Origin: a virus
Length of the DNA: 64,000 bases
IMG/VR virus record: IMGVR_UViG_3300050501_000129
Reading direction: 5' to 3' (one strand)
Shown: positions 3,350-39,947 of the stretch, one piece after another
How positions within the stretch are numbered: the stretch's first letter is position 1
Layout of the letters: each line of letters begins with the position of its first letter
Position numbers and translations under genes: made by a program
The notes under the pieces: generated by a model
The model's database searches: none
The model's input: only the letters and a program-made list of their open reading frames with translations
What the model was told of the DNA's origin: nothing

Positions 3350-3438
3350 CGGACCTCATCATAGTCGACGTACCACATGCAGTAGCTGAGATAGAAGATC
3401 CATAAGCCAAGCAAGGCATCATACAGCAGTCTTACCAC
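3337..3438 (-). CDS. possible 33-aa hydrophobic micro-ORF between two glycosyltransferase genes
   Basis: The GTG overlaps the upstream TAA. The product is VVRLLYDALLGLWIFYLSYCMWYVDYDEVRWIR. Its TGA forms a GTGA overlap with an alternative GTG start of the downstream gene. It is short and unverified. Confidence 0.25.
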   Translation of the reverse strand: MVRLLYDALLGLWIFYLSYCMWYVDYDEVRWIR

Positions 3439-4034
3439 CGGTCCGGCCTTCCGCTCGTGTTGTTACCATGGTGGTGCCAGACCCAGGTCACCTCAGGAAC
3501 GTGCAGAAACGCCGCGCCAACCTCCAGCAGCCGCAGATAGAAGCCCCAGTCGTCATAGTCGCTGTCCGGTGACGTGGCCGGCGGACCGAACAGCGCCTGC
3601 TTGGCCAGGTTGGCGTACACGAGAGACGTCACCGGTATGTATGACTTCTGACGCAGCAGGTCAGCGTCGAACGGCTGACCGAAGCGTCCCCACTCCTCGC
3701 GCTGCGGAAGTATCTCGCCCCGCGCGTCGACCACGCGGCAGCCGGAATAGACCACAGTGGCACCGGACCGCAGCGCGTGATGCAGCAGGATCGTAAGGTG
3801 ATCCGGTAGAAGCTCATCATCGTCGTCGAGAAACGCGACCCACGTCGTTGATATGTGATACAGCGCCCGGTTGCGCGTCAGCGCCGAGCCGTCGTGTCGC
3901 TTGTCGAACGAGATGACGACGTTCTCCGGCTGGTGAGTCTGCGCCGCGACGCTCGTGACCGCGCGCGTCAGCTCGAAACGACGCGTCGGGATATGCGGTA
4001 TGATGACGGTTACCCTGTCCACAGCTGTCCCCAT
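3432..4034 (-). CDS. glycosyltransferase family 2 (GT-A)
   Basis: 200 aa. N-terminal VIIPHIPTR and DxD-type FLDDDDELLPDH are typical of GT2. Confidence 0.85.
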   Translation of the reverse strand: MGTAVDRVTVIIPHIPTRRFELTRAVTSVAAQTHQPENVVISFDKRHDGSALTRNRALYHISTTWVAFLDDDDELLPDHLTILLHHALRSGATVVYSGCRVVDARGEILPQREEWGRFGQPFDADLLRQKSYIPVTSLVYANLAKQALFGPPATSPDSDYDDWGFYLRLLEVGAAFLHVPEVTWVWHHHGNNTSGRPDRW

Positions 4035-4045
4035 TCAGTAACCCG

Positions 4046-4624
4046 TCACTGCCACCTGGTTGGCAGTCCGCTGGTGTGATGTCCGTGCAGCCGGTAGTGC
4101 CAGGTAATCTCACCGGTGCCGGCAAACTTCGCGCTGATGTTCATACACCGCAGGATGAACATCCAGTCCTCTCCCATCCAGTCTTGGTGAAGCGGACCAT
4201 CCGGCATGAGAAAACCGGCCTCCTTGGCGATTCGCGTTCGTACCATGACATTCATCGTCGTGTGATGTGGCTCAGTGGGATTGAACTGCCGGCCGCGATG
4301 CATCGGAAACGGGTTGTTGCCGTCGAACCACGAGTACAGGAAGTCGGCACCGGTATCATGTTGAAGGTTCAACAGCGTCTCAACGTGGTGCGGATACCAG
4401 AGGTCGTCGTCATCGAGAAAGGCAACCCACTCGGTCTGTACGGCGTCCAACGCCCGCTGACGGGTCCGCGCCGCACCCTCGTGATTACAGTCCAGCGCGA
4501 CGGAGATGCCACCGTGCAGCGTCACCGTCTGCGCCTGCACCGAGCTGACGGCCTCTGACAGGAGGTTGCCGACGCGCGGCGGAATGGCCGCGATCGCTGC
4601 CGTGACGTCTACCGTCTTCTTCAC
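4046..4624 (-). CDS. glycosyltransferase family 2 (GT-A)
   Basis: 192 aa, a paralogue-like copy of 3432..4034 (FLDDDDLWYPHH; similar C-terminal HHTSGLPTRW). Confidence 0.85.
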   Translation of the reverse strand: MKKTVDVTAAIAAIPPRVGNLLSEAVSSVQAQTVTLHGGISVALDCNHEGAARTRQRALDAVQTEWVAFLDDDDLWYPHHVETLLNLQHDTGADFLYSWFDGNNPFPMHRGRQFNPTEPHHTTMNVMVRTRIAKEAGFLMPDGPLHQDWMGEDWMFILRCMNISAKFAGTGEITWHYRLHGHHTSGLPTRWQ

Positions 4625-21604: not shown

Positions 21605-23269
21605 TTAGACGCCGCACTCGGTCAGGTCGGCCGCGCCGGTCGTACCGTCGGGGCAGATGTTAACGGTGAGACGCCGTACCTCGTGGCCCGGGTTGAAGAT
21701 CAACCAGCACTCTTCCATCCACTCGGCGGTGTAGTCGTTGGTGGCGTTGAGCACTGAGTCACGGATGATGCCGAGGTCCAAGCGCATGCCCTGACCGAGC
21801 ACGACGGTGCCCGGCGCGAACATCATGAACTCGACGGTCGTCGGCCACGCGGTCGGCAGCGTTCCGGGAACGCCCGGGAAGCCGGTGGTACGGACCTGGT
21901 AGTCGTTGACCCACTGGATCCGGACGTTGATCGCGTCGAACAGGCTCATCAGGTACGCGTCGGACGCGGACAGCATGTCCGTACCGGCACCCATGCGCTT
22001 GCGCAGGTCGGAACGCAGCACGCCGCGCAGCCAGCGGGGAGCGATGACCTCAAGGACCGCGTCTTGGCACATCGAGTAGCGGTCACGGTAGTCAATCGCC
22101 TGCAGCTCCATCGCGCCAAGGACCGGTGCGACGGCGCCCGCGCCCGCGGAGCCGTTGGTCACGGTGAACGACGCGGACAGCGCCCGGACCTCGTTGATGC
22201 GCGCACGGTTGATCTTGTGGAAGTGCGACGCCATCACCAAGCGGGTGTGGTTGGCGATCAGCTCGGGATACGCGTCCTCGGTCAGGTTGCCGACGGTGAG
22301 ACAGATACCGTCACAGTGGAGACGTGCCTCGTTGAAGCCGGGGCACGGCACCCGGCCGCAGGTCTTGGTACCCGACTGCCCGGTGCCCGTGACGGCCGCG
22401 ATGTCCTGCGTCTCGGTCCAAGTCCACAGCGCGCCGCCGAGGACGACGTCCGCGAATGACGGTGAGGTGGGCCAGCGGATGCCGCCGCGGTTGATACCGA
22501 CCGTCGGCAGGTCGAGCGCGCCGTCCTCACAGACGATGTTGAAGAAGTCGTAGCTGATCTCGGAGGGCGAGCACCAGCCACCGGCCGCGATCAAGATGTC
22601 GGGGTTGGCCGCCGCGGTCATCACCGCGTTGAACTCGGCGAGACTCGAGTCTAGACCGAGCATGTACTTGTGCTCTCGCATCAGCGACGCGATCGGGATG
22701 CGAGGCGCGGCGTCTCCCTTGTCGGTGATCGGCAGGTGCTTGGCACGAGCGGTCATCGCCGCGACGAGACCCTCCATACCCTCAAGCTTGGTACCCGACT
22801 GGAAGCCCGGGATGTCCGACGACGCGATGAGCACCGACTCGGGACGCGGCGCGTCGGCCGGCGGCGCGTTGCGCTGCGCGTCAGCCAGTGACGGGTTCTT
22901 GAACTTGCCCATCGGTCGGGGCTGCGTCGTGGCGCCGCCCTTAGCCGGTGTCGCGGCCGCCTCGACCGGCGTCTCAGCCGCGTCCTCGGGCTCTTCAGCT
23001 GCCTCTTCCAGCGCGGCCTTGCCCTTGGCGCGCTTGTCTGCGACAGCCGCGGCTTCCTCGGTCCGGCGGATCTTCTCCAGCTTGACGCGACCGATGCCGT
23101 CCGCAAGGGACTCCATCTCGTTGGCCTCGACGACCTGCACGGCGAGCTCGACCGTGTCGCTGGCGTACAGCTCGCTGATTCGCGCTCTCGCGGCGGTGAC
23201 GAACTGGTCTAGCTGCTCTACGCTGAGGGTGGTGATGTCCTCAGGCAGGCTCAGAATGTTCTCAGACAC
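21605..23269 (-). CDS. major capsid protein with N-terminal scaffold/delta-like region
   Basis: 554 aa. The N-terminal ~160 aa are coiled-coil and Ala/Glu/Pro-rich. The C-terminal ~390 aa carry capsid-like motifs (AAGGWCSPSEISYDF; NATNDYTAEWMEECW). It lies downstream of the protease gene. Confidence 0.7.
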   Translation of the reverse strand: MSENILSLPEDITTLSVEQLDQFVTAARARISELYASDTVELAVQVVEANEMESLADGIGRVKLEKIRRTEEAAAVADKRAKGKAALEEAAEEPEDAAETPVEAAATPAKGGATTQPRPMGKFKNPSLADAQRNAPPADAPRPESVLIASSDIPGFQSGTKLEGMEGLVAAMTARAKHLPITDKGDAAPRIPIASLMREHKYMLGLDSSLAEFNAVMTAAANPDILIAAGGWCSPSEISYDFFNIVCEDGALDLPTVGINRGGIRWPTSPSFADVVLGGALWTWTETQDIAAVTGTGQSGTKTCGRVPCPGFNEARLHCDGICLTVGNLTEDAYPELIANHTRLVMASHFHKINRARINEVRALSASFTVTNGSAGAGAVAPVLGAMELQAIDYRDRYSMCQDAVLEVIAPRWLRGVLRSDLRKRMGAGTDMLSASDAYLMSLFDAINVRIQWVNDYQVRTTGFPGVPGTLPTAWPTTVEFMMFAPGTVVLGQGMRLDLGIIRDSVLNATNDYTAEWMEECWLIFNPGHEVRRLTVNICPDGTTGAADLTECGV

Positions 23270-23554: not shown

Positions 23555-25819
23555 CTAGATCAGCTCCAGTTCTTTCATCACTTGGTTCTTGCGGGTCTGG
23601 GGATCCAGTCCGACGCTGGCAACGAGCAGCCGCTTGGTCATCTGGATCGCGTTGAACGTGTCGTCATACCTTGGCCCGGTGACGTACGTCGGCGCCTTGA
23701 CGTGCTCGATCGGGATCGCCGAGGCGGTAATGACACCGTCGTTATACACAACTGACGCCTGCGTGCGAGCCATCGGGAACCCAGGTACCGGCACGAGGTG
23801 CGCCGCGATGAACTCCTGAACACCGGGACGATCAGGGTGCGGCTGCCAGTCGCCGGACAGCGAGCAGCCGAGCGCCTGCGCGACCTGGCGCGGATCAGCA
23901 CCGGGGTTCAGCGCGCCGGCTGCGTAGATGTAGCCCTGCTTTGACTCACCGATCTTGACGTTAGCTAGCACTGAGCACGAGTTGTCGTAGTGCTCGCGCC
24001 GGCGCTCGAGCGTGCCGTAGTTCTCGGTCGGCGCGTGACCGCAGGACGCGGTGATAACGCCGGTGACGACGCGGCCGCCGCCCTCGACGATCGTCTCGGC
24101 CTTGTGAAAGCGCGTGTAGTCGACGTTGCCGCGCGGCACCTTGCGTTTGACGCTGCGGTGCGTCGTGTTTCCCGGTGCCAGGATCCCATAGATGCGGCCC
24201 TCATCGGTGATCGTCAGCGCGCCAGACAGCTTGACGTCCGTCGGTTCGTTGAACCACGCGGCTTTCGGTAGGTTCGGAATCGTGATGGTGTGCACAGACG
24301 CGACGAGCGGATCATCATCGTCACATCCGCAGCCGTCAGGACCGCAGGACGCGGTCAGCGTCTCGGCATTGGTAAACGTCAGCTTGGCCTCGACAAACGC
24401 CGGGAAGGCGACCAGCGTCGCGCCGCGGATCCGGCCGCGGTGGAAGATCGTGGTCTCAGGCTTGGCGAACATGTTGCCGCCGTCACCGAACTCGTCATCC
24501 GCGTAGACCATCTCGACATCGGCGTCTTTGACCTTGTCAACGTCGACGGAGACGCCGCCGGTCTCCATCATGTGCCGGATGCTCTCGCCGTGCTCGCTTT
24601 TGAGCGCCGAGCCGAAGACGGTACCCTCGCCGCGGATTCGGCTACCGTGTCGAGTCATCTTGGTGATGTTACCAACCATGATAGAGCCGTTGTGTCCACC
24701 GACGTTGGCCGGCTGGTACATCAGCGGCTGTGGCGGCTTCTCCCAATCCAGGCTTCCCAGCCCAAACAGCCGACCGTCACCAGACTCAACGCCCTCAACG
24801 GTCAGGACGCCGCTCCACGGCTCGTCACCATCGCCGACCGCATAGCCGTCCATCGCGGGACTGTCATCATCCATGCACGAGCCGTCGTCCATCTGGTGCT
24901 GCCCCGGGCCGCAGTCGGTTTTCTTACCGGCAAACTCAACAGTCTTACCAGTGTAGTCGGTATCATCTTCACGATCAGCTCGACGATTTTCTTCCTCATC
25001 GAGATCTTCCATCATCTGACGTTCACTCTCAGCTGGACTGCGACGAGCACGTTTAGCACGCTCTCGATGAATCTCAGCAACACGCTTCTCGTGTTGCTTT
25101 TGAAGCTTGTCGAACAGATCAGCGTCGTTTAATTCTGGATCATAGACATCAAGATCGTCTTCATCCACGTCGGGAAGCAGGTCTTCCGGATCGACCTCGC
25201 CGCCAACGTCTCTGCGCCCGTACTTACTTTCGATCTCACGCAGTTCGCGCGCTTCGGCGTCTGTTACGTCATCGTTGAGAGACTTGTGACGCAGCTCGTT
25301 GTACCGCTTGGTAGACACCATATGAGGATTCTCATCCTCATCAACGCCTGGAACATGAAATCCCTTGTGTGGATTGTGATCCCGCTGGTTGTGAGTACCG
25401 TGCGCCTCGACCATGTCACTCATCGAGCTCTCTACCCCCTTCTCGGCCGGCCACTCGCCGGTAGCGGCCTTGTGGTACTCGGCACACAGACCCTGCGGAT
25501 TCTTGACGTACTTACCGAGGTGACGAACGCACCGGTCAAACGAGCCGTCGGTGCCCCAGCGGATCTTCGCCGCGCCCGGTCCCCGCACCCAGTGGTTCTT
25601 GAGGTTGTGGCTACCACCGGGTAGGTTGACGTCACTCTCTCTGTCGAACTCGAGATTGAAATCCTGGATCGCGAGCTTCAGCCCGTAGTCCTCGCTCGCG
25701 TAGAGCGCGCGCCGCTGCGCGTTCGCCTTCTCCTCGGTGTCGTGACACGCGACGACCGCGCCGTCGCTGATTTTTACGACACAGAACTTGGCGCCCTGCT
25801 TGGTTACCCTCCACGGCAT
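23555..25819 (-). CDS. capsid maturation protease (long form)
   Basis: 754 aa. The central GVLTVEGVESGDGRLF...LDWEKPPQPLMY is prohead-protease-like, and there is an acidic linker. Positioned between the MuF/2H genes and the capsid gene. Confidence 0.75.
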   Translation of the reverse strand: MPWRVTKQGAKFCVVKISDGAVVACHDTEEKANAQRRALYASEDYGLKLAIQDFNLEFDRESDVNLPGGSHNLKNHWVRGPGAAKIRWGTDGSFDRCVRHLGKYVKNPQGLCAEYHKAATGEWPAEKGVESSMSDMVEAHGTHNQRDHNPHKGFHVPGVDEDENPHMVSTKRYNELRHKSLNDDVTDAEARELREIESKYGRRDVGGEVDPEDLLPDVDEDDLDVYDPELNDADLFDKLQKQHEKRVAEIHRERAKRARRSPAESERQMMEDLDEEENRRADREDDTDYTGKTVEFAGKKTDCGPGQHQMDDGSCMDDDSPAMDGYAVGDGDEPWSGVLTVEGVESGDGRLFGLGSLDWEKPPQPLMYQPANVGGHNGSIMVGNITKMTRHGSRIRGEGTVFGSALKSEHGESIRHMMETGGVSVDVDKVKDADVEMVYADDEFGDGGNMFAKPETTIFHRGRIRGATLVAFPAFVEAKLTFTNAETLTASCGPDGCGCDDDDPLVASVHTITIPNLPKAAWFNEPTDVKLSGALTITDEGRIYGILAPGNTTHRSVKRKVPRGNVDYTRFHKAETIVEGGGRVVTGVITASCGHAPTENYGTLERRREHYDNSCSVLANVKIGESKQGYIYAAGALNPGADPRQVAQALGCSLSGDWQPHPDRPGVQEFIAAHLVPVPGFPMARTQASVVYNDGVITASAIPIEHVKAPTYVTGPRYDDTFNAIQMTKRLLVASVGLDPQTRKNQVMKELELI

Positions 25820-25866: not shown

Positions 25867-26562
25867 TCACGAAACGAGCGGGATATCATGCACGTCGCCA
25901 CCGAACGCGAGCCGTACCCGGTCAAACGTCACCGGTCCCGTCTTATCCGCAAGCGCGACGACCCGCTGAATGTCGTCAGTGTAGACCAGCGTCAGGTGCG
26001 GTATCCAGGGAACGTGCTGCTCCGGTAGACCAAAGCCAGGTGACGTATCCTGTACATCACGCGCGACGCTGTCGACCGTCGTGTGAATCTGCTCGAGCTC
26101 ACGGCCGGACAGCCCTAGAACGATGCACGTATCCCGGTCCTTGCCGTCTTCCTTAGTGTGTCCCGGCGGGTTGAAAACGCTAACCGCGAAGCCCTCGCCG
26201 GCGACCGTGCCGCGTCCGCCGAGGACGTTCTTTAGGCGCTCAACCAGCTTGTTACGCGCGTTCGTCGAGATGTCGTCAGCTTCTCCGAGGTAAACCAGCG
26301 TTACGTGCAATTGATCTTGTGGTTCGCCGCCGTCAACAGTGAGTCGTTTGACGTCCGCGTCGCTCGGCACTAACGCAATCATCGCTCCAGTATGTACCTC
26401 AGCGGCTGCAACGGTGATCTTCGGTAGACCGAACGTGTTCATGTCTGCACCGGCCAGCAGCGCGTACGCCTCAGCCTCAGTAAGGCCGGGACGTTCCTCA
26501 ACTTCCTCAAAGAGGACGTTCTCCGGGTCAGAGAGCGGCGTCAGTCGTGTAGGATTTGTCAC
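25867..26562 (-). CDS. 2H phosphoesterase (LigT / cyclic phosphodiesterase-like)
   Basis: 231 aa with two HxTx motifs (H86-V-T-L in QLHVTLVYLG; H189-L-T-L in IPHLTLVY) at the spacing typical of the 2H superfamily. Confidence 0.8.
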   Translation of the reverse strand: MTNPTRLTPLSDPENVLFEEVEERPGLTEAEAYALLAGADMNTFGLPKITVAAAEVHTGAMIALVPSDADVKRLTVDGGEPQDQLHVTLVYLGEADDISTNARNKLVERLKNVLGGRGTVAGEGFAVSVFNPPGHTKEDGKDRDTCIVLGLSGRELEQIHTTVDSVARDVQDTSPGFGLPEQHVPWIPHLTLVYTDDIQRVVALADKTGPVTFDRVRLAFGGDVHDIPLVS

Positions 26563-29500
26563 TACGCCTCCACCCGCAGATGTACCTCTATCACGTTGTT
26601 GTACCCCGTATCTTTTACCGAGACGACGCGGTAGTTAAGCCCCAGCGCCAGCAGCATCTCATCTTCACTCGGGTTAGCGCTGATTGACTTGATGAACGCC
26701 GCCGGTGTACCCGCTGGCAGATCGATCGTCAGGTGTACGTTTCCGCTCCACGTTCCGGACGAGACGCTCGTTGACAGCGGCGCGCGGTCGACAAACAGCT
26801 TGCCCTCTAGCTTCTTTATGTCGGCATACCCGGAGCCGTTGGTCAGTCCCGGAAACTGTGACGCTCCTGTCTTACGGAAGACGCGAACGCTCTCCGGCAG
26901 CGGCCGCATGCCCGCTTGGATGTTGACCGCGGTCCGCGCGGCGAGCAGCTTCGCGTCTTCAGACATGTACTTGACTTCATTGGTAAGATCACGGATAACT
27001 GGGTTCATCTCGCTGTAGTAACTGCCGGAGTACTTCGTTAGCGCGGCCTTCTGCGCGCTCGTCCAGGGGGCGCTAGCCAGCATCTGGTTCTGCAGCGTCT
27101 GTGCCGTAGAGATGTTGAGCGTCTTGAAGGTCTTCGCGTTGAGATCAGGCGTCCCGATCTGTCCCGGTGTCTTGATCTTCGCGAGGGTGTCGAGAACCGC
27201 CTGCGAGAAGTTCGACTTGTAGACGTGACCGTTGACCGTCGTGGGGGGCGGCGGGTGCAGCAGGTCGGTCGCGAACTTAGCACCGGCCGGCGTTTGCAGC
27301 CACGCGACGATCGCCTTCTCGTACGCGTTGGTGTTGGTGACCTCCGGCGCGCTCGCGTCCTTCTGCTTGGCAACCGCGTTGGCCTTGTTGGTCGACTGCT
27401 CATCGACGATCTTCAGTAGCTGCAGCAGATTGAGCTTAGGTACAAGTGAAAGCTTGCTATCCTCGTTGTGCTTCTCAAGAGTTTCGTGCAGCGCGGTGAA
27501 CAGCGTCTCAGGAGTCGAGCTAAGCGTGACAAATCCCACGCTGCTCTGCTTCTTAAACCTGTCGAATATCGCGCGTTGTGCTGCAGAACTCATGTCAACG
27601 GGAATCTGTCCGTGCATCTTCTGCAGCGTTGCGACGTCAAACTTCTCCTGCGGCTTTGGTTTTACAGCCGGCGCGGAGACGGCGGTAGACGGCGTCGGAC
27701 CGGACGTCGAGATCTTCGGCGCAACCGAGCTGGTGCCAAAGACGCCACCGGAGCCAATCGCCGAGTCACCCGCCGGCGGCTCAAACCAGTTGCTTCCCTT
27801 ACCAAACGCGGCGTACGCGTCTTTCTTGCTGTGGAACGTCACATTTGTCCACAACGAGTTATCATTCTGTGACTGTTCCTGCAGCACGAACTTCTTTAGG
27901 TTGTCGTTCCAGACCAACCGGCTAATCTGGTCAGTGTTGGGATTCTTGTGATAGCCGACGACCGCGCCGTTCTGGTACTTCGTCGTGTGAATCGTCTTGG
28001 TGCTGATCTTCATCGGCTTCTTGAGGTCGCTCGCCTTGATCGGTCCGAGCGTCGGCGCGGTGGGTGCGCTCGGCGTGACCAGAGTCATGACGCTTGGCGC
28101 GACGGCGGGAGCTGGCGCGACGGCGGGATCCGGCGTCACCGGCGCGTTGATCGGTGACGAGCTAGTCGACGTCGACGGCACGATCGTGGCAACTACGACG
28201 TGCTCGGTACCCATACCGAACTTGGCCCTGTCCTCCGCGGTGGCCTTGCGGACCTCGTCGATCCGGTAGCTCGTTCCCGCGGCGAGGATGATTTCGTGCT
28301 CACTGTGCCCCGGGATGCCCGCGTCCGCGTAGACGGCCGGCGTACCCTCAGGCGTGTTGACGATCATCTGGATCGGCTTTTTGGCGTAGTCGTACGAGAC
28401 GGCCTTGGTCTCGTCGACGGTCGTCGAGAAGAAGCCCTTGTCGGTCAGCGTCTGGCCCTCGAGCGCCTTGAGCTTGGTGAAGTCGGCCGCGATCGTGTTC
28501 TGTCCGAACGCCTGCGCGCCCGTACCGCGGAACAGCCGTAGGCTGGACGGCAGCGGCTTCATCGCGTTCTGTAGGTTGACGGCGTGTTTGACGCCGTCCT
28601 GCAGCTGCGCGTCGCTGAACTTAGCGAGCTGGTTCTTGTCATCACGCAAGACCGCATTCATGCTGCGGTATCCGACGCTGGTGCCGTACTTCTTTATGGC
28701 AGCGATCTGTCCCGAGTTCCACGCGCCAGAGTCAGCAAACATCGACTTCTGCAGCTTGTCAGCCTGCGTCGGCGTGATAACGCTGTAGATCGCGTTCTTG
28801 ACCGGCGCGTTGGGCGTGCCGATCTCGCTGACCTTCTTGATCTTTCCGTGCACATCGACGTAAAACTTGCTACCAATCGTCGCCGATACCGTCGCCGGTA
28901 CCGACGTCTTAACCGGTGGTCTAGCCGTCACAGTCGCCGTTGGCGTAGGTGTAGCGCTCTGCCACTCCTCAATCTTCTGCTTCGGTGTGTTGAATCCCCA
29001 CACGTCAGCCTCGTTCGCGAGCAGCTTCAGCTTCTGCTGCTGCGGCGCGTCCAGCTGGTCCCAGTCGTTGGCGGTAACGCCCTTTGTGTGCAGATCGAAC
29101 CAGTCGGCGAACGCCGCCGGCGCAATCAGGTGACTAACGTCCTTGATGTCTTGGTCGAGCTTCTGCGCGACGGCACCGGCGCCGCCCTTGCCGGCTATGA
29201 AGCCTTTGATCTTGTCGCTAAACTTCTGCCCGAGCGGCGCGTTGACGTCGTAGAACGGTGCTTCATGAGCAATCACAGCCTGGTCAGACGCGGACAGCTT
29301 ATCGAAGTCGTCCTGCGTCAGCTTGGTGAAAAAGTCTGCGACAACGTGTGGTGGATCGTTATAGAAGTCAGGTATAGCTACGCCTGACCCGGATGGTGAC
29401 GTCAGCGGCGCCATGTTGAGCAGCGCCTCAGAGATGTTTGTGTGTTCAATCTTCGAAAGCTTACCCTGCAGCATCAATGTGGTATTTACCGCGTCAATCC

Positions 29501-32453
29501 CGTTGATGTCTGCGGGTGAAAACTTCTCGAGATCTTTCGGCGTCAGCGACAGCAGCCACGCGACCTTCTTATCTACCGGTAGCTGTAGGAACTTCTTAAA
29601 GGTGTCGACGTCACCAGTCTTCAGGGTAGATGGCACCGCCGGAGCTGCAACCGGCGCAGCTGATGGCGCTACCGGTTGCGTCCAGCCAGTCTGCTTCGAG
29701 AACTTCTTGTAGGCATCACCCTTGGTGAACAGGTGTTGTCCGAACGCGGGTCCCCAGTTACCAGACGGAGTCTTCTGCTGCAGGTTAAATTTCTTGAGAT
29801 TCTCACTCCACACCAGTCGTTGGTCACCTTTTTCGGCAACTACAGTGCCGTCCGCATACTTCGTCTTGTAGATCGCGACGGTGTTGAGCTTGATCGGCGC
29901 ACCGAGCGCCGGCGTCGCTCCGGGCGACTGAGCCAGGAGGGTCTTCATCTTAGAGGGAGCAACCGGTGGAGTCGCAGGGGCCGGCAACGGTGGTGCAGTT
30001 AGCGGCACCGGTGTATGCGGCTCAAACCAGCCCGTCTCCTTCGAGAACTTGGCATAGGCGTCCTTCTTGGTGTAGGCCTTGACGGTCGTCCAGTTGCCGT
30101 CCGCGTCGGCGCCCTGCAGCAGAAACTTCTTCTGGCCGGCATCCCACACCAGGCGTGACGGTCCCGCGTGCGCGTAGTTCTTCTCTGCGACGACGGCGCC
30201 GTCGGCATACTTGGTCGTGTAGATGACCTTGGTGTTGATATGAATTGGCTCAGCGTCGGTCATTGTGATTGGACCGTACTTAGACGGCAGTGTCTTCTTC
30301 GGTAACGTCGTCGCCTTCTTGGCAAACTTGCCCTCAGAATCACGCGGATGCTTCGCCTCGTCAGCCGCGGTCCACTCATCACTCGACGCCGTCACCAGGT
30401 CATAATAATCCTGGTTCGTGACGGTAGGCGAACCGGCTGTCATCGTTATGACATGAAAACCAGCGATCAGCGGCTCGTCGTACTTGGCGAGGATGTTGTC
30501 GATCTCCGCAGCCAGCGGCGCGACCAGCCGGTCGCGCGTCATCATCTCGCGGATCTGCTCCTCGGTGAGCCAGACGGCCTTCCACAGCTCACCCTCCTGG
30601 CGGTCGACCCGCGGTGTGAACTGCTCCGGCGCGTCCGCGACCACGTTCGTGTAGCGCCACGGTGGCTTACCCTCGACCGGCCGCAGGATCGAGTGCTCCC
30701 CGCGCGGCTGCAGGCTCTCAAGCAGCTCCGGCGTCGCCCCGATCTCCTCAAAGGCCTCACGCGCCGCGCCCTGCGCCGGCGTCTCGTTCTGCTCCAGCGC
30801 GCCGCCGGGCAGCTGCCACTTCCACTGGTTCTTGCCGGGGTTGGCGCGCTGGACTAGCAGGTAGCGCGGCGTACCTCGTTCATCAACGTGCCGCATCATG
30901 ACGCCGGCGGCGCCGTATTTTCCCCACATGCCGGGCGCGTACATACCGTCGCCGGACTTGCCCCGCAGCTCCTCCGGCAAGATGGTGAACGGTGACTTAG
31001 TGCCGAAGCGGCCGTCCGCGTCACGCGGGTGCTTCAGTTCGTCCTGCGGAGTCCACGCAGCCGTTTCGACACGATCCAAGTTAAGAACCCAAGCCTTAAG
31101 CAGTCCTAGTGGACCCCGCGCTGCTGCCCGGTGATGTCCGTCAATCAGATACGGTTTACCGTTCTTGATTATGACGAATGGATCAGCATCTCCGACCTCG
31201 TCATCACCGATCGCGTTGTCGTCTTCATCTTGTGTCGGAGTCAGTTCAATGACTTGAAACGTGTCTCGATAAAAGCTCTTATCTTTCTCAAAGTCGACGT
31301 TATCGGGTCCCGGCATGAGGTGCCCGTAGTCAAACTGTATGTCCTGTACCGGCGCGTACTTAAACGGTCCCCACGCACCGAGTTCACGTTTTCTTGGTTG
31401 CACATTGGATGCAACGCGCACCTTTAACGGTGGCCGTGGCGTCGACTTCTTTTTCTCAACGTTGTTAATGTGAGACTTTCGATCATATTGTCCCGACTGG
31501 ATCGTTACTATGTCTCCATTTATCTCCTTAATAACTCCTGAACCGGCGTTATCCTCGACTAAATCACCGACAGATACCTTCTTATCGGTGAACTGCCCCT
31601 GATGATCACGCGGGTGTTTGTCTTCATCCTCCGGCGTCCACGCAGCCGCAGTGATCGGCTCGTCATCAGAGTCTTCGGAGTCGTCAGTGAAGACGTACGC
31701 AACGGTGCACCGGCAGTTGATGACGTTCTCCGGCCGGCCAGTCGGGTCACCCGGCACCTGCAGAAAGTCACCGTCTACCTGGAACGGCTGGTTGACGCCG
31801 ACGCGCTGTCCGTCCGCCAGCCGGTGCGCCTCGCGAGTACGCGCGTCGTTCGTCGCCAGCCACTCCTTCTGGCACTCGGCGTCGGTGAACTCGGCAACCT
31901 TAAGCTGCTGCAGTGAGCCAAAGTTCGCGGCCGGCACGACCTCGGTACGCGCGATCATCTGGGCGTGCGGCTCAGAGATCTTGGCTACGCCGCGCAAGCG
32001 CGTCGCCAACTGGGTGATCGACTCGCCGGCCTCGTAACCGAGCGCCAGCTGGGTGCGCATGTCGTCCCAGACGACGTCCCCGATACCGGTGAGCCGGTTC
32101 TTGGCACCGGCCAGGTAGGTCGCCGCCAGGTCATAGGTGATCTTGGGAACACCGGCCGGCAGCGCGGCGTGGATGTCCTCTGCCGCGTCGACGAACGTCT
32201 GGACGACGTACGGGAACAGGACGTCGTCAACTTCCTGCGTCCACGTCGTCGTAACGACACCCAGCGCACCTGCGGGAATCGTCGGGTTCGGCGGGGGCGG
32301 CTCGGCGAACAGCGTGATCTCGGTAGCCGCAGTCATAACTGAGCCGTAGTTGATCGCGCGTAGCGCGCGTCGGATCGCCCGCGTTGTGAGGCCGTCAAAC
32401 ACCCTCTCGCGGGTCTCCAGCTCGTCGCTGGTTAGACCAACCGCGCGCCGCAT
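26562..32453 (-). CDS. MuF (SPP1 gp7-like) polyvalent virion protein with ParB-like, Nudix and two ADP-ribosyltransferase domains
   Basis: 1963 aa. MuF motif TNDARTREAHRLADGQ...NCRC (aa ~100-256). ParB-like PYLIDGHHRAAA (aa ~360-460). Nudix box G551-x5-E-x7-REAFEEIGA. ART1 has R1309 (LFRGTG), STT (FFSTTV) and ExE (SEHEI). ART2 has R1860 (VFRKTG), STS (LSTSV) and ExE (EDEML). Confidence 0.9.
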   Translation of the reverse strand: MRRAVGLTSDELETRERVFDGLTTRAIRRALRAINYGSVMTAATEITLFAEPPPPNPTIPAGALGVVTTTWTQEVDDVLFPYVVQTFVDAAEDIHAALPAGVPKITYDLAATYLAGAKNRLTGIGDVVWDDMRTQLALGYEAGESITQLATRLRGVAKISEPHAQMIARTEVVPAANFGSLQQLKVAEFTDAECQKEWLATNDARTREAHRLADGQRVGVNQPFQVDGDFLQVPGDPTGRPENVINCRCTVAYVFTDDSEDSDDEPITAAAWTPEDEDKHPRDHQGQFTDKKVSVGDLVEDNAGSGVIKEINGDIVTIQSGQYDRKSHINNVEKKKSTPRPPLKVRVASNVQPRKRELGAWGPFKYAPVQDIQFDYGHLMPGPDNVDFEKDKSFYRDTFQVIELTPTQDEDDNAIGDDEVGDADPFVIIKNGKPYLIDGHHRAAARGPLGLLKAWVLNLDRVETAAWTPQDELKHPRDADGRFGTKSPFTILPEELRGKSGDGMYAPGMWGKYGAAGVMMRHVDERGTPRYLLVQRANPGKNQWKWQLPGGALEQNETPAQGAAREAFEEIGATPELLESLQPRGEHSILRPVEGKPPWRYTNVVADAPEQFTPRVDRQEGELWKAVWLTEEQIREMMTRDRLVAPLAAEIDNILAKYDEPLIAGFHVITMTAGSPTVTNQDYYDLVTASSDEWTAADEAKHPRDSEGKFAKKATTLPKKTLPSKYGPITMTDAEPIHINTKVIYTTKYADGAVVAEKNYAHAGPSRLVWDAGQKKFLLQGADADGNWTTVKAYTKKDAYAKFSKETGWFEPHTPVPLTAPPLPAPATPPVAPSKMKTLLAQSPGATPALGAPIKLNTVAIYKTKYADGTVVAEKGDQRLVWSENLKKFNLQQKTPSGNWGPAFGQHLFTKGDAYKKFSKQTGWTQPVAPSAAPVAAPAVPSTLKTGDVDTFKKFLQLPVDKKVAWLLSLTPKDLEKFSPADINGIDAVNTTLMLQGKLSKIEHTNISEALLNMAPLTSPSGSGVAIPDFYNDPPHVVADFFTKLTQDDFDKLSASDQAVIAHEAPFYDVNAPLGQKFSDKIKGFIAGKGGAGAVAQKLDQDIKDVSHLIAPAAFADWFDLHTKGVTANDWDQLDAPQQQKLKLLANEADVWGFNTPKQKIEEWQSATPTPTATVTARPPVKTSVPATVSATIGSKFYVDVHGKIKKVSEIGTPNAPVKNAIYSVITPTQADKLQKSMFADSGAWNSGQIAAIKKYGTSVGYRSMNAVLRDDKNQLAKFSDAQLQDGVKHAVNLQNAMKPLPSSLRLFRGTGAQAFGQNTIAADFTKLKALEGQTLTDKGFFSTTVDETKAVSYDYAKKPIQMIVNTPEGTPAVYADAGIPGHSEHEIILAAGTSYRIDEVRKATAEDRAKFGMGTEHVVVATIVPSTSTSSSPINAPVTPDPAVAPAPAVAPSVMTLVTPSAPTAPTLGPIKASDLKKPMKISTKTIHTTKYQNGAVVGYHKNPNTDQISRLVWNDNLKKFVLQEQSQNDNSLWTNVTFHSKKDAYAAFGKGSNWFEPPAGDSAIGSGGVFGTSSVAPKISTSGPTPSTAVSAPAVKPKPQEKFDVATLQKMHGQIPVDMSSAAQRAIFDRFKKQSSVGFVTLSSTPETLFTALHETLEKHNEDSKLSLVPKLNLLQLLKIVDEQSTNKANAVAKQKDASAPEVTNTNAYEKAIVAWLQTPAGAKFATDLLHPPPPTTVNGHVYKSNFSQAVLDTLAKIKTPGQIGTPDLNAKTFKTLNISTAQTLQNQMLASAPWTSAQKAALTKYSGSYYSEMNPVIRDLTNEVKYMSEDAKLLAARTAVNIQAGMRPLPESVRVFRKTGASQFPGLTNGSGYADIKKLEGKLFVDRAPLSTSVSSGTWSGNVHLTIDLPAGTPAAFIKSISANPSEDEMLLALGLNYRVVSVKDTGYNNVIEVHLRVEA

Positions 32454-34064
32454 CTACGGCCTCCTCGGGCCGCTCGCGGCGCCAGACGGCGCATCTCGCT
32501 TGGCGGCCGCGCCGTTGGTCGCGCCGGATGGGGGTCCGGCGGCCGGCGCACCCGCGGCGGGCCGGCCAGGACCCATGGGAAGCGCGCCGGCCACCGAGCC
32601 GTCGGGAAGGATGTCGCCGGCCTTGGGCGGCTCTGGCTTGTCCTCCGGGTACAGGAGGAAGTACGCGTCGGACAGCGGCACACCCGCGACGGTCGCGTTG
32701 GTGAGCAGCATCCGGCGCAGCTCCTCGTCGTTGGGCTGGTCGGCCTTGTCCAGACCGATCACCTTGCGGTAGGCCACGTCGTCGATCGACATGCGCGTGC
32801 GCGCGTCGATCGCGTTCTGTGAGTTGTCGGGCTTCTGGATCAGGTCAGACGCGTCATACCAGACGACGCTACGACCCTCATCATTCTTGATCGGCAGGCC
32901 GGCAGCGCGCATGATCGGCCACAGGTACTTCTCGGTCAGGCCACCGACCAGGATCTCGATCGTCGACCCGAAGATGTACTTGATGTTATCCTCGGAGTCG
33001 ACATACGCGTTCCAGTGGTTGAGGTCGCTCTTGCCTTGCATAGCCTCGGGCGGCGCGGGCAGCTGCTTGGACAGGTTAGCTAGCGCCGCGGCACGTGCCT
33101 CGATGACCTTCGAGTCGATGCCAGTCGCGATGATGAGGTGCTTGAACTTCTCGATGAACTCGGCGGGAACGCGCAGCGGCACGGGAATGGCGCTGGCTGG
33201 CGAGCCCGGATCCCGGATGCCGCGCGACGCGATCGCAATCAGCTCAGCGATGAACGGGTCTGGCGCGTCCTTGAACTGTGGGTTGACCGGGAACGTGACC
33301 TCAGACGGGATGAACAGGAAACCGTTGAAGACCAGGCGAGACAGCAACGTCGCGATGATGTGCCGGTTGTACAGGTCGATCTCACGCAGCGTCGTGATCG
33401 CGGGACGCGCCCAGCTGGTGACCTCGTAGTCGAGCTCGTCGTCTGGCCGAAAGATGCGCGCGACCAGTGACGACGGCGCCAGCTGCCGCCACTCGTTGGG
33501 CGCTATCCGGACGTCGAATCCGGCAAGCAGCGGCTTACCGTCATCACCACGAACGATCTGATTGGTTATCGGATCACGGAACGGCTTCTGCGACCGCCGG
33601 ATCTGCTTGGCGGACTTGACCTCAAAGACGCGCGAGTCGCCGTCGACGTCGCCTACCTCATCTTCACCGATGAAGTACCCGACGCCGGCCACGCCGAGGT
33701 GCCGGCCCCACTTGTACAGGTACTGCGTCTCGCCGCCGCGGGCGTTGATCACTAGATCGTCGACGTACTGTGCGGCGGGTCCCTTGTCGGTCATCTCGGG
33801 TTCACGGATGCCGGGCTTCTGGTTGGCCGCGACCAGGTGCATGCGGCTGATGCCCGCAGAGAACCAGTCCATCACCGAGCCGAACTCGCCAATGGAGCGG
33901 GTGAACTCCCACATCTCATCCTGCCACGTCTTGTACTGCAGGGCGTACTGCTCACGCGCGGCGCCGGACAGCGTCTGCGCGGAACCGACCAGGATCTGCG
34001 GGTTGACCTGGTCTAGCGGCGCCGGCAGCCGGGGCCGGGTTCGTGCGGCGGGAGCGTTAGCCAC
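32454..34064 (-). CDS. portal protein
   Basis: 536 aa, immediately upstream of the MuF gene (canonical portal-MuF pairing). The C-terminus is Pro/Ala/Gly-rich. Confidence 0.8.
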   Translation of the reverse strand: MANAPAARTRPRLPAPLDQVNPQILVGSAQTLSGAAREQYALQYKTWQDEMWEFTRSIGEFGSVMDWFSAGISRMHLVAANQKPGIREPEMTDKGPAAQYVDDLVINARGGETQYLYKWGRHLGVAGVGYFIGEDEVGDVDGDSRVFEVKSAKQIRRSQKPFRDPITNQIVRGDDGKPLLAGFDVRIAPNEWRQLAPSSLVARIFRPDDELDYEVTSWARPAITTLREIDLYNRHIIATLLSRLVFNGFLFIPSEVTFPVNPQFKDAPDPFIAELIAIASRGIRDPGSPASAIPVPLRVPAEFIEKFKHLIIATGIDSKVIEARAAALANLSKQLPAPPEAMQGKSDLNHWNAYVDSEDNIKYIFGSTIEILVGGLTEKYLWPIMRAAGLPIKNDEGRSVVWYDASDLIQKPDNSQNAIDARTRMSIDDVAYRKVIGLDKADQPNDEELRRMLLTNATVAGVPLSDAYFLLYPEDKPEPPKAGDILPDGSVAGALPMGPGRPAAGAPAAGPPSGATNGAAAKRDAPSGAASGPRRP

Positions 34065-34681: not shown

Positions 34682-35095
34682 CTATGAGAATATCTTATCC
34701 AGGGCGTCGTTGACGGACTTGCGCAGCGTCTTCGGCGCGATCGCGTTGACGTCATCTAGGAAGCGCGCGACGTCCAGCGCGTTGCAGACCAGGTACGTGT
34801 GCTTCTCGCCCGTCGGTACGTGCGTAGCCAGCCGCAGCGACAGCAGCGTGGGATCGGACATACGCAGCTGCAGCGACGCGACACCGCTGGGCATCGGGAT
34901 ACCCGGAACGCAGCTCGCCAGCGCGTCCGAGAAGTGCTGGCGGTCAAGCTGCCAGAACTCGTCGGTGCCCTCCGCGTGCAGGGTCAGCGCGAACGGGTCG
35001 TCATCCTCGTAGGTCCACATCACCGATATGCCGCCATGATCATGCATCTTTCGGCAGCTGACGACGGTCAAGATCCGCATGTTCTTCGTAGTCAT
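34682..35095 (-). CDS. SsgA/SsgB-like sporulation-specific cell division protein (SALP)
   Basis: 137 aa from ATG 35095 (GAGGAGAG RBS). WTYEDDDPFALTLHAEGTDEFWQLDRQHFSDAL and PTLLSLRL..HVPTGEKHTYL..ALDVARFL follow the SsgA-like family pattern. The longer track ORF (to 35266) is an upstream shadow. Confidence 0.7.
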   Translation of the reverse strand: MTTKNMRILTVVSCRKMHDHGGISVMWTYEDDDPFALTLHAEGTDEFWQLDRQHFSDALASCVPGIPMPSGVASLQLRMSDPTLLSLRLATHVPTGEKHTYLVCNALDVARFLDDVNAIAPKTLRKSVNDALDKIFS

Positions 35096-35108
35096 CTCTC
35101 TTCTCTCC

Positions 35109-35258
35109 TCACCTGGCGGTTGCGGTGATTTCCGCGACGCAGTCCGGGCAGAGCAGCAGCTCGACGCCGTTGTCCGCGCGGACGGAGACCAGTTCGGTCT
35201 CTGGCACGATCTCACCCATCCGCTCGCAGCGGCCCAGGTGATCAGTGTACTCGTACAT
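35109..35258 (-). CDS. possible small Cys-containing protein (49 aa)
   Basis: GAGGAG RBS precedes the ATG at 35258. The product is MYEYTDHLGRCERMGEIVPETELVSVRADNGVELLLCPDCVAEITATAR. It is below the track cutoff. Confidence 0.45.
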   Translation of the reverse strand: MYEYTDHLGRCERMGEIVPETELVSVRADNGVELLLCPDCVAEITATAR

Positions 35259-35286
35259 CTTCTCACTCCTCACTTTAGCTTACGCG

Positions 35287-38208: not shown

Positions 38209-38388
38209 TTATGTCATCTTCATGACAGCGCAGCAGTCCTCTCGATCGCAGCCGGTGCAGCCGCAGTCTCCCTTAAGATCACACGCTCCCGTGCAGTCCG
38301 GATTATCACAAAACCCGTACCAGTCGCCGTCAACGCAGCACTCTCCCTCGAGCGGGTCGCCGCAGCTCGGCGGCGCCAGTGACGTCAC
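38209..38388 (-). CDS. Cys-rich microprotein (11 Cys in 59 aa)
   Basis: The GTG at 38388 forms a GTGA overlap with the terminase stop. Contains CC, CxxxxC, CGC and CxxC clusters. Confidence 0.55.
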   Translation of the reverse strand: MTSLAPPSCGDPLEGECCVDGDWYGFCDNPDCTGACDLKGDCGCTGCDREDCCAVMKMT

Positions 38389-39947
38389 CGCCGGTCCCAC
38401 GGCGACAGGCTGCGCGCCCCGAGCAGGTCACCCGGCAGGACGTTCTCGAGCAGGGACGGCGCCGCGAGCAGGCCATCCGTGTGCGTCTCGGCGGACCAGG
38501 ACGCCGGCACGAACGCCAGCAGCACCGACTCGGCGACGTCGGGCGAAACGCCGAGCCGGTCGATGATGTCCTTCTTCGCCTCGATCTGGACCTGGCCCTT
38601 GGCGGCAACGATCTTGTACAGCGGCATCGTCAGCTCGCGGATCAGCCGGTCCTGGGTGTCCGGGCTGAGCGCCGAGAAGTCCCAGTGTCGCGTACGGGAC
38701 AGCTCCCGGCCCAGCCACCACATCTCGGCACGCCGGTTGTAGTACAGGTGCTCGTTTCCCGCGGTCGGTGACATGGCAACGTTGATCGGCACGACGCTGG
38801 CGTCGTGTCCCGTTGAGGCGGTCGCGCGCTGCGCGTCGAGCACCTCCAGCGGCGACGCGTCATGACGGCTAGACAGCGCCCGCAGGTGGCCGTAGACGCC
38901 CCAGCCGACGCCGATGCTGTCTACCTTGACGGTCTTGACGTTCCACTCACGTAGCACCAGGACGATCGCGCCGACGGTCGTCGTCGGGTCCGGACTAGTG
39001 AACTCCTGGATGTAGAGAATCGCGCCACCGCGCCGGATCGTCACCACCGTGCGGTCGTTTCCCGCGCCGACGTCGACGCCGGCCTCGACGTCGTCGGTTT
39101 CGTGTACCGGCATCTCGAGGTAGCGGCACTGTGCCGCCCAGTTGTGCGGCACCACCTGCCACGGCGAGCCGACCTTCGGGAACTGGCCGGCGCACTTCGA
39201 GGTGAACAACGCCGACTCTTCTCCCCAGTTGTGCCGGCGGTCCTCGACCCACCCCGGTGAGATCAGCATCTCGCGCAACCGGTCCGAGACCGGCTCATCC
39301 GTAAAGTTGGGCGTGTCCTCGTAGGAGATGTGAATGACGTGCCACCCAGAGCCGGGCTGACAGATCTTCTCGAACTCGCCCGAGCCATCCGGGTTGCCGA
39401 CGGCGACCATCCGCGCGTTCTCGTTGGACGCCAGCGACGAGCCCTCGTTCCACAGGTGCAGCGGGATACCGTACGCCTCGTCAAAGATAACCATCAGGTA
39501 GCGCGCGTGCAGGCCCTGGAAAGCGGCCTCGACGTGATCCGGCGGCTTGCGGCCCAGCGCCGCCAGGAACTTGCCGATGTACCACTCGCGCTTATTGGTG
39601 TGTCCCTGCAGGCCGATCCGCGAGTGATGCTGGTTGATCTCGTTCCACAGCACCGCGTCGACCTGCTTCGAGGTCGGCGCGGTGCTGATGACTCTCGCCT
39701 CGCCGGCGGCGTGTGCGTCGATCCACCAGCAGCAGAGCAGACCCATCGTGAAGCTCTTGCCAGAGGAGTGACATGAGTGGATCGCCACCTTCGGGTGGTC
39801 GCGGACGGCCCGCAGAATCTCCTTCTGCTTGGACCAGACCTCGACGCGCGCCCGGTCCGTCGCCCAGCTCACCGGGTCTTGGCGCCAGCGTACGTTCGCC
39901 GGCGTGGCAAGCTCGGCGTAGACCTGAGCACGCGTCTTGGTCTCCAC
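38385..39947 (-). CDS. terL: terminase large subunit
   Basis: 520 aa. Walker A-like HSCHSSGKSF, Walker B-like MVIFDEAYG, and a C-terminal nuclease-like region with acidic motifs. Confidence 0.85.
   Translation of the reverse strand: METKTRAQVYAELATPANVRWRQDPVSWATDRARVEVWSKQKEILRAVRDHPKVAIHSCHSSGKSFTMGLLCCWWIDAHAAGEARVISTAPTSKQVDAVLWNEINQHHSRIGLQGHTNKREWYIGKFLAALGRKPPDHVEAAFQGLHARYLMVIFDEAYGIPLHLWNEGSSLASNENARMVAVGNPDGSGEFEKICQPGSGWHVIHISYEDTPNFTDEPVSDRLREMLISPGWVEDRRHNWGEESALFTSKCAGQFPKVGSPWQVVPHNWAAQCRYLEMPVHETDDVEAGVDVGAGNDRTVVTIRRGGAILYIQEFTSPDPTTTVGAIVLVLREWNVKTVKVDSIGVGWGVYGHLRALSSRHDASPLEVLDAQRATASTGHDASVVPINVAMSPTAGNEHLYYNRRAEMWWLGRELSRTRHWDFSALSPDTQDRLIRELTMPLYKIVAAKGQVQIEAKKDIIDRLGVSPDVAESVLLAFVPASWSAETHTDGLLAAPSLLENVLPGDLLGARSLSPWDRR

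Follow-up and report, generated by a model that had tools for sequence, protein, structure and literature searches.

A MuF-anchored polyvalent protein with two predicted ADP-ribosyltransferase domains, an exchanged cassette and a repeated junction motif in the head module of an uncultured phage

The question raised by the locus studied here is why a phage should keep, directly behind its portal gene, a protein of 1963 amino acids (aa) in which several unrelated enzyme domains are joined to a head-morphogenesis domain. The locus lies in the IMG/VR virus record IMGVR_UViG_3300050501_000129, of which 64,000 nucleotides (nt) were analysed, that is 64 of about 68.4 kb; this stretch is called the window below, and all positions are in its numbering. 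The protein is encoded on the minus strand (26562..32453), starts with ATG according to the translation check, and combines a MuF domain with two ADP-ribosyltransferase (ART) domains, a Nudix hydrolase domain and a ParB/sulfiredoxin (ParB/Srx)-like domain. Our answer, to which we give a probability of roughly 0.6, is that this is the gene of a head-associated polyvalent effector, and that the phage is an uncultured, probably lytic siphovirus with a most likely actinobacterial host.

Fusions of this general kind are known. MuF-VIP2 ART fusions occur in lytic actinophages of the Microbacterium clusters EH and EJ (PMC7302621), fusions of MuF or portal proteins to Alt/VIP2 ARTs, Nudix and 2H domains were reported as predicted injected effectors (PMC9503650), and polyvalent proteins, for which packaging and delivery upon invasion have been predicted, can include ParB-like domains (PMC5512222). 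Since such fusions are already published, the 1963-aa protein joins a known class. A sequence-only reading of this DNA had called its combination of enzymes notable; the domains are all present, but the combination is less unusual than was implied. The main interest lies instead in the design with two ARTs and a RenU-like Nudix domain, in the swap of one cassette between close relatives, and in a junction motif, the last being the one lead that could reach beyond this protein. The triplicated junction motif, a triplicated domain that we call X, the cassette polymorphism and a linked gene for a 2H phosphoesterase were all absent from that earlier reading.

Enzyme domains joined to a head-morphogenesis domain

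The gene and its domain content are far beyond chance, with an identical or near-identical protein (P0001) and about 20 full-length relatives in independent metagenomes. The features that carry the argument are as follows.

26562..32453, minus strand: whole gene, predicted MuF-anchored polyvalent effector protein of 1963 aa (open reading frame (ORF) list, translation, Pfam, PHROGs, relatives)
31668..32276, minus strand: MuF / SPP1 gp7-like head-morphogenesis domain, aa 60-262, with the Pfam core at aa 131-251 (PF04233; phrog_2468)
31071..31418, minus strand: ParB/Srx-like domain, aa 346-461, with PTQ at 406-408 and DGHHR at 438-442 (ParBc_2, motifs, profile and model matches)
30396..30968, minus strand: RenU-like Nudix hydrolase domain, aa 496-686, Nudix box at nt 30735-30803 (PF00293; RenU 6uuf)
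28209..28937, minus strand: ART1, VIP2/iota/CdtA-like R-S-ExE type, aa 1173-1415, with R1309, S1343-T-T and E1385-H-E1387 (PF03496; alignments)
26565..27272, minus strand: ART2, C3/VIP2-like R-S-ExE type, aa 1728-1963, with R1860, S1894-T-S and E1930-D-E1932 (PF03496; alignments)

At the N-terminal side, the Pfam model Phage_Mu_F (PF04233) covers aa 131-251 with an E-value of 6.5e-15 and 56.3 bits against a cut-off of 29.6. PHROGs are concordant with the Pfam domain calls, with the head-morphogenesis family phrog_2468 at 6e-38 and further head-morphogenesis families; TIGR01641 reached 30.8 bits, under its cut-off of 39.65. The MuF domain is conserved in all relatives, and within the head module the gene follows the portal gene immediately, which is the position expected of the MuF family.

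The ART family model ADPrib_exo_Tox (PF03496) matches two separate stretches of the protein with E 4.7e-39. In ART1, R1309 lies within LFRGTG, and an alignment with CdtA, iota Ia and Vip2 (E 9e-11) puts its R, STT and EHE on the catalytic YRR, STS and EYE of these toxins. In ART2, R1860 lies within VFRKTG, and the catalytic residues align likewise with those of C3stau2, Vip2 and Lmo0066 (E 1.6e-7). The marks by which R-S-E ARTs are recognised, namely the family model together with aligned Arg, S-T-S and (E/Q)-x-E, were found in both copies. ART1 and ART2 are paralogues with 35-42% identity, and each belongs to a duplicated unit composed of an X domain, an intervening region and the ART itself. 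Since one head protein carries two ARTs that are conserved but diverged, each is expected to have a host target of its own.

Between MuF and the ARTs, the NUDIX model (PF00293) matches aa 524-637 with E 2.1e-15, and the Nudix box at aa 551-573, G-x5-E-x7-REAFEEIGA, is complete and fits the consensus G-x5-E-x7-R-E-U-x-E-E-x-G-U. The sequence-only reading had placed a MuF/SPP1 gp7 domain, a complete Nudix box at nt 30735-30803 and two intact R-S-ExE ARTs in this protein; the first was reproduced above the Pfam cut-off, the box was verified in position and residues, and every named ART residue was found in its place and aligned with the catalytic residues of solved toxins.

Among proteins of solved structure, mycobacterial RenU (PDB 6uuf, E 1.3e-13 over about 130 aa) comes closest to the Nudix domain; it hydrolyses ADP-ribose (ADPR), FAD and NADH, but not NAD+ (PMC4401782). 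The two differ in setting, as RenU is a stand-alone cellular enzyme of redox homeostasis under PknG and L13, whereas the phage domain, with its complete box, is embedded in a head protein and its substrate is a prediction. The earlier suggestion that the domain acts on ADPR or NAD-derived molecules gains support because RenU is its closest solved relative, and this kinship makes it plausible rather than proven. If the substrate range is RenU-like, the NAD+ which the ARTs consume would be spared, so that a RenU-like Nudix domain beside two ARTs predicts hydrolysis of ADPR or NADH without NAD+ destruction.

As for the ParB/Srx-like domain, the family model ParBc_2 matches aa 423-496 with E 0.009 and 16.6 bits, below the cut-off of 23.6. 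All nine top matches of a profile search against PDB have the ParB/Srx fold, with E-values of 0.06-1.5 and the best at 0.059 (Spo0J, SerK, Atu1540, 1vk1, SbnI). An AlphaFold2 (AF2) model of the domain has a predicted local distance difference test (pLDDT) score of 86. Foldseek with this model gave no match at or below 1e-3; its matches 2-19 were nearly all sulfiredoxin, ParB-CDP, Noc, PadC and KorB, and the best ParB/Srx match had E 0.09 and a probability of 0.91. An exhaustive HMMER search of 1.8 billion (1.8e9) proteins gave 16 representative relatives, in which P-x-Q is invariant, as is DGHHR, the counterpart of the active-site Arg motif (DGHHR / GxxR) that follows the central strand in the ParB/Srx superfamily, and many of which sit inside multi-domain proteins of 900-1900 aa with ART, X and Nudix modules. 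The part of the earlier claim that concerned the DGHHR motif stood, the motif being in place and the weak matches concordant, while the family-model score stayed under its cut-off.

When genome contigs were scanned with the pattern [YFL]L[IVM]DGHHRA, 112 relatives of the ParB-like core came up, and the best 80 of the 112 are almost all from archaeal metagenome-assembled genomes (L002-L081), of Thermoplasmata, Archaeoglobaceae and Methanomicrobia. With relatives nearly only of this archaeal kind, the ParB-like scan is no help for host assignment. One relative from the protein search, P0049, has two ParB-like domains, CBS-linked by eye.

Relatives, the exchanged cassette and the repeated elements

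The window is nearly identical to the ENA metagenome contig ERZ27257663:k141_5056494 (68,403 nt); over the 25.9 kb compared, the two differ only by an 18-nt indel (PAVAPA) in the linker that follows ART1. For the shorter relative P0001 (1957 aa), an alternative start codon was ruled out, and an internal 6-aa PAVAPA indel explains its length. There is no close cultured phage, because megablast of the gene against 50,697 phage records returned no match and tblastn gave only domain-wise matches of less than 45% identity, mostly to phages of Mycobacterium, Gordonia, Microbacterium and Streptomyces.

About 20 full-length relatives of 1650-2335 aa, many on contigs of 65-69 kb, were found in metagenomes. 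They share the layout MuF - variable slot - (Nudix) - X - X - intervening region - ART1 - X - intervening region - ART2. The dual ART is retained in 18 of 20 family members, with the R/S/ExE triads conserved in both orthologue groups, and ART1 is replaced by a kinase-like domain in P0005 and P0014. The finding thereby adds a well-preserved, metagenome-only clade of about 20 phages to the MuF-anchored polyvalent effectors. The kinase-like domain has weak Fam20C and HipA_C matches and the motif HDSH..DKGQAFKY; judged by eye, it is also present in gp56 of a cultured Mycobacterium abscessus prophage (L083). In the distant relatives P0025, P0026, P0031 and L137 the MuF domain looks, by eye, split just before its conserved N-C-R-C motif by an insertion of about 250-300 aa, which is intein-like with C...HN-C boundaries.

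The slot between MuF and Nudix is polymorphic. Where the window protein has the ParB-like domain, P0002 and P0010 have a third ART (Pfam E 2e-10 and 6e-12). Judged by eye, the slot also holds a third ART in P0004 and P0006 and an HExxH (HEGSH) segment in P0005; in several others it is empty. The exchange can be followed at the DNA level by comparison with L082, the contig of P0002. Identity to the window is 92.4% over the portal and MuF region; window positions 31680-31033, with the ParB-like domain, have no homology to the third ART carried there by L082; and identity resumes at nt 31032, with 98.3% over the next 7.5 kb. The right-hand breakpoint coincides with the second copy of an HPRD motif that is described below. 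On this comparison the slot after MuF is a recently exchanged cassette of predicted effectors. A ParB-like domain against a third ART in phages 92-98% identical in the flanks means effector turnover on a very short evolutionary scale, and such an exchange fits an arms race against host defences.

The remaining parts of the protein are repeats, linkers and regions of a less definite nature, listed here from the N-terminal side.

31569..31655, minus strand: junction motif 1, aa 267-295, AAWTPEDEDKHPRDHQGQF (internal repeat; motif hidden Markov model (HMM) across the family)
31419..31568, minus strand: short segment at the cassette start, aa 296-345, beta-rich by eye only (no Pfam match; within the cassette non-homologous to L082)
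30969..31070, minus strand: junction motif 2, aa 462-495, AAWTPQDELKHPRDADGRF, right breakpoint of the cassette (internal repeat; motif HMM)
30294..30395, minus strand: junction motif 3, aa 687-720, EWTAADEAKHPRDSEGKF (internal repeat; motif HMM)
30009..30290, minus strand: X repeat, copy 1, aa 722-815 (internal repeats)
29649..29930, minus strand: X repeat, copy 2, aa 842-935 (internal repeats; conserved in relatives)
28944..29636, minus strand: region before ART1, aa 940-1170, helical and repeat-rich by eye only (no Pfam family; conserved in relatives)
28062..28208, minus strand: Pro/Ala-rich linker after ART1, with the 18-nt PAVAPA copy-number difference from the ENA contig at aa 1443-1448
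27759..28046, minus strand: X repeat, copy 3, aa 1470-1565 (internal repeats; conserved in relatives)
27273..27758, minus strand: region before ART2, aa 1566-1727, helical by eye only (conserved in P0001-P0022; no Pfam family)

X is a unit of about 90 aa with three copies here, which share 37-54% identity, and about 70 in the family set. In an alignment of 57 X sequences W40, W58, K66 and W79 are invariant, and an AF2 model with pLDDT 88 predicts a short helix, a four-stranded antiparallel sheet and a second helix. No significant match of X was found in Pfam, by profile search in PDB sequences or by tblastn in the phage records, and Foldseek with the model gave best E-values of 0.29 in PDB and 0.089 in BFVD. 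Without a Pfam match, X corresponds to none of the LPD families held by Pfam. Weak matches to a WD40 blade, to lectin and to Tudor-like domains were dismissed as noise.

The junction motif, W-x3-[DE]-E-x-K-HPRD-x2-G-x-F, occurs in three copies, ahead of the ParB-like cassette, of the Nudix domain and of the first X repeat, and is found at the same module boundaries throughout the family; a six-frame translation revealed it in none of the other long ORFs of the window. Its wider form is [FW]-x-E-x-x-H-P-R-D-x-x-G-[KR]-F-x-x-G-G-G. The motif is not confined to giant proteins, since in other uncultured phages it stands as an N-terminal tag on separate genes that come right behind the portal gene. 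In L085 it lies in the C-terminal part of the portal; of the six genes that follow, five have it close to their start, among them those for a PI3/PI4-kinase-like protein, for P0045 (ParB-like) and for an ADPrib_exo_Tox protein; the sixth, encoding a 91-aa protein, has a degenerate copy near the C-terminus. In L087, two consecutive post-portal proteins begin with it.

A back-translated HPRDxxGKF pattern was found in at least 120 IMG/VR stretches (L089-L208), and every match listed is in frame in an ORF. Among the matches listed, positions outside the pattern are also conserved, with F/W at -5 in 96%, E at -3 in 84% and G at +13 in 70%. When 66 motif-bearing IMG/VR ORFs were sampled, 20 carried portal domains, 12 ART, six Nudix, six DUF2213, four Zeta toxin, three to four topoisomerase IB (Topo IB) and two 2H domains, and others had PBECR nuclease domains. 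The architectures include portal-motif-LPD13/PBECR2, motif-Zeta toxin and motif-Topo IB, and one polyvalent ORF of 1351 aa has six copies. A tblastn search with the 35-aa motif segment of the window gave no match; a consensus 24-mer matches cultured Burkholderia and Xanthomonas phages, in proteins annotated as portal, and Pseudomonas syringae phage genomes, in a hypothetical protein close to their left end. Burkholderia phiE131, Xanthomonas PhiXhv-5 and Pseudomonas Orimi01 are examples of cultured phages with the motif.

The motif goes unmentioned in the main texts of Iyer 2017 (PMC5512222), Zhang 2012 and Jamet 2017 (PMC5576092), and a string search of the literature was empty; it may thus be previously undescribed. 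A tentative reading, which we hold to be possible though rather less than an even chance, is that it serves as a general signal of phage head cargo, whether for capsid targeting, for docking to the portal or MuF, or as a processing site of the head protease. The giant protein would then be a chain of motif-tagged cassettes. The reading is mildly favoured by the N-terminal place of the motif in separate portal-adjacent genes, by its position between portal and effector domains, by its up to six copies in one ORF, by the domains that accompany it and by the conserved flanking positions. Should the motif indeed mark proteins for packaging or processing, the recruitment of unrelated enzymes as ejected cargo in many phage lineages would have an explanation; such a tag would also offer a portable handle for loading chosen proteins into capsids, and make ejected effectors predictable from sequence alone.

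Head-module setting, predicted delivery and rival explanations

The genes that frame the locus are these.

38385-39947, minus strand: terminase gene
32454..34064, minus strand: portal protein gene, directly upstream (phrog_776 portal, 6.6e-73; stop/start junction sequence)
25867..26562, minus strand: 2H (LigT-like) phosphoesterase, next gene (PF13563, E 7e-7; HVTL and HLTL motifs)
23555..25819, minus strand: 754-aa protease-like head protein (phrog_859, phrog_18402 'head maturation protease')
21605-23269, minus strand: major capsid protein gene

The order, all on the minus strand, is terminase, portal, the 1963-aa gene, 2H, the 754-aa head protein, major capsid and tail genes, and the run from the portal to the capsid gene is single and tightly packed. 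The TAG stop of the portal gene abuts the ATG of the 1963-aa gene, with GGAGG 8 nt upstream, and the TAG of the latter overlaps the GTG start of the 2H gene by 1 nt. For replication, the window encodes a family A DNA polymerase (PolA), a primase/D5-helicase, a SNF2 helicase and a PD-(D/E)XK nuclease; an HNH endonuclease is also present. The source is probably an uncultured, lytic-type, actinophage-like siphovirus.

In the 2H protein, both HxTx motifs (HVTL and HLTL) were found in the translation, and PF13563 scored 29.8 bits against a cut-off of 27. Its comparison with PDB sequences gave only spurious matches, so that an Acb1-like role against the cyclic-oligonucleotide-based signalling defence CBASS is no more than an idea. 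The 2H protein is 54% identical to aa 599-771, and the 754-aa head protein 55% identical to aa 1205-1407, of P0028, a 1528-aa protein of Micromonospora sp. in which MuF, 2H and a protease-like part are fused. Because of this collinearity at 54-55% identity, the 1963-aa, 2H and 754-aa genes correspond to one gene there, and since 2H is fused to MuF in relatives, the 2H gene belongs functionally with the 1963-aa protein.

On the reading that we prefer, the MuF domain would take the protein into the procapsid beside the portal, by analogy with SPP1 gp7, the adjacent head protease may cut the chain around the junction motifs or the Pro/Ala linkers, and on infection the pieces would leave together with the DNA, in the manner of T4 Alt. 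Once in the host, both ExE ARTs would between them mono-ADP-ribosylate two different sets of proteins, probably on arginine, and thus redirect or disable them. Nudix and the co-encoded 2H may hydrolyse nucleotides of the ADPR type, be they free ADPR, NADH, ADPR-derived immune signals or cyclic phosphate products, and the ParB-like domain could be an NTP-binding nuclease or kinase-like module acting on DNA or nucleotides. T4 Alt itself is a head-packaged, injected, Arg-specific R-S-ExE ART that modifies RNA polymerase and other host proteins (PMC5512222). Its sequence link to the 1963-aa protein is only a faint PHROG match (phrog_802, E 1.4e-4). Alt has no MuF fusion; it is targeted by the T4 capsid-targeting sequence and cut by gp21.

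Several points weigh against this proposal. Presence in the virion, processing and ejection are all argued by precedent, from SPP1 gp7, T4 Alt and P1 Dar/DdrB (PMC5512222, PMC9503650, PMC5576092). The ParB-like domain probably belongs to the ParB/Srx fold, on sequence and model matches that are concordant but individually non-significant. With regard to the ARTs, the ART1 orthologues of P0010 and P0013 have QxE (Q-N-E) in place of ExE, which would mean a drift of specificity within the family. In C3-type enzymes Q-x-E goes with specificity for Asn, not Arg; the R-S-E enzymes include Asn-specific and nucleic-acid-modifying members, and the target class is not legible in their sequence. The Pfam scan found no processing peptidase domain of the zincin-like metallopeptidase (MPTase) type in the 1963-aa protein. 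The window being 64 of about 68.4 kb, a lysogeny module could still lie in the remainder. Finally, as SPP1 gp7 is present at 1-2 copies per capsid according to a passage in PMC5576092, the delivered dose may be tiny.

Among known systems, polyvalent proteins (Iyer, Burroughs, Anand, de Souza and Aravind 2017, PMC5512222) likewise carry many unrelated effector domains in a late or virion gene setting, with MuF, ART, ParB-like and 2H as recognised components, and the 1963-aa protein has the two or more unrelated effector domains and the gene setting that define this class. It departs from them in that their typical ARTs are of the H-Y-D 'HYD2' clade whereas both of its own are R-S-ExE (Alt/VIP2-type), and that the zincin-like MPTase, their commonest, frequent though not obligatory hub, is missing. 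The actinophage MuF-VIP2 fusions (PMC7302621; M. abscessus prophage BK061310 gp56, annotated as 'minor capsid protein and ADP-ribosyltransferase fusion protein') come from lytic or temperate phages and are alike in having MuF and a C-terminal VIP2-type ART directly after the portal; unlike the protein studied here, they have one ART and at most about 1200 aa, lack Nudix, ParB-like cassette, X domain and HPRD motif, and show an ART identity of 27-34%.

Other explanations of the locus have to be compared with that of an ejected effector. The gene might encode a MuF polymorphic toxin of a temperate phage or prophage, delivered by the capsid against non-immune competitors while lysogens are protected by immunity proteins. 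The N-terminal MuF with variable C-terminal toxin domains does resemble the family of Jamet et al. 2017 (PMC5576092), in which ARTs make up 14% and capsid delivery is hypothesised, and cassette polymorphism between near-identical phages is typical of polymorphic toxins. However, MuF toxins are found almost only in temperate phages, being single toxins of prophages, mostly in Firmicutes, with an immunity gene expected (PMC5576092), whereas we see a multi-enzyme array in an apparently lytic genome: the larger ORFs of the window that were scanned include no integrase or repressor family, about 4.4 kb lying beyond the window, and the replication module is of the lytic type. Moreover, the downstream genes encode 2H and head proteins rather than small immunity-like proteins, the records for the 26 kb surrounding the gene contain no family of the ARH or macro type, and a query of 185,579 species genomes with the ART2 module gave 52 pattern matches and no relatives. 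We consider this explanation improbable.

Somewhat less improbable, but still unlikely, is that the enzymes are not ejected at all and act late, in the producing cell or the capsid, on host, phage or capsid-internal proteins or on packaged DNA; we include here the variant that the MuF fusion only secures co-expression with the head genes and the effector part is trimmed by the head protease. A protease-like head gene does lie two genes downstream, and the Mu-type portal reportedly loses a C-terminal piece during maturation. T4 ModA and ModB are ARTs active without packaging (PMC5512222). On the other hand, packaged effectors are recognised in the literature by just this pairing of a late gene position with a portal-associated fusion partner (PMC5512222, PMC9503650), and an enzymatic cargo of about 1700 aa behind MuF, kept in about 20 phages, would be costly if discarded. 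To a different chemistry after packaging and ejection we give the same low credence: the substrates of the ARTs would be nucleic acids or small molecules, or the ARTs would attach NAD-capped RNA like ModB or act as NADases, and the Nudix domain would remove NAD caps or other caps from RNA or turn protein-linked ADP-ribose into phosphoribose. Broad Nudix substrate ranges and RNAylation by ModB (PMC9503650) speak for it, as do the QxE variants of ART1 in P0010 and P0013, but the closest solved relatives of the ARTs are the protein-targeting toxins CdtA, iota, Vip2 and C3, and RenU prefers free ADPR, FAD and NADH. All three explanations are less well supported than that of an ejected effector.

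Host clues and further observations

The host is likely an actinobacterium, as far as can be judged from sequence features. The clues are a G+C content of about 60%, the kinship of the Nudix domain to mycobacterial RenU, the 54-55% identity of the 2H and 754-aa proteins to the one Micromonospora protein P0028, and the DUF6205 and DUF1360 families in the window. In addition, an ORF of 194 aa at 34682-35266 (minus strand) has a sub-threshold match to SsgA (E 9.7e-4, 19.4 bits against a cut-off of 25); SsgA is a Streptomyces protein of sporulation and cell division, and the weak match is a possible hint of an actinomycete host.

In L082, which is an ENA ERZ27257760 contig, an extra gene of 72 aa at 1158-1376, with a Pfam match to Acb2_Tad1_hairpin, lies between the DUF1360 gene and the portal; it is missing at the corresponding window position 34064/34075. 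The Acb2_Tad1_hairpin family comprises anti-CBASS and anti-Thoeris sponges, and a sponge gene beside the portal of L082 hints that the clade is under pressure from nucleotide-signalling defences.

Beyond the tail genes, at the distal end of the structural block, the window holds three adjoining glycosyltransferase genes on the minus strand, at 2276-3349, 3432-4034 and 4046-4624, of which the first matches phrog_7162 and the other two phrog_14775.

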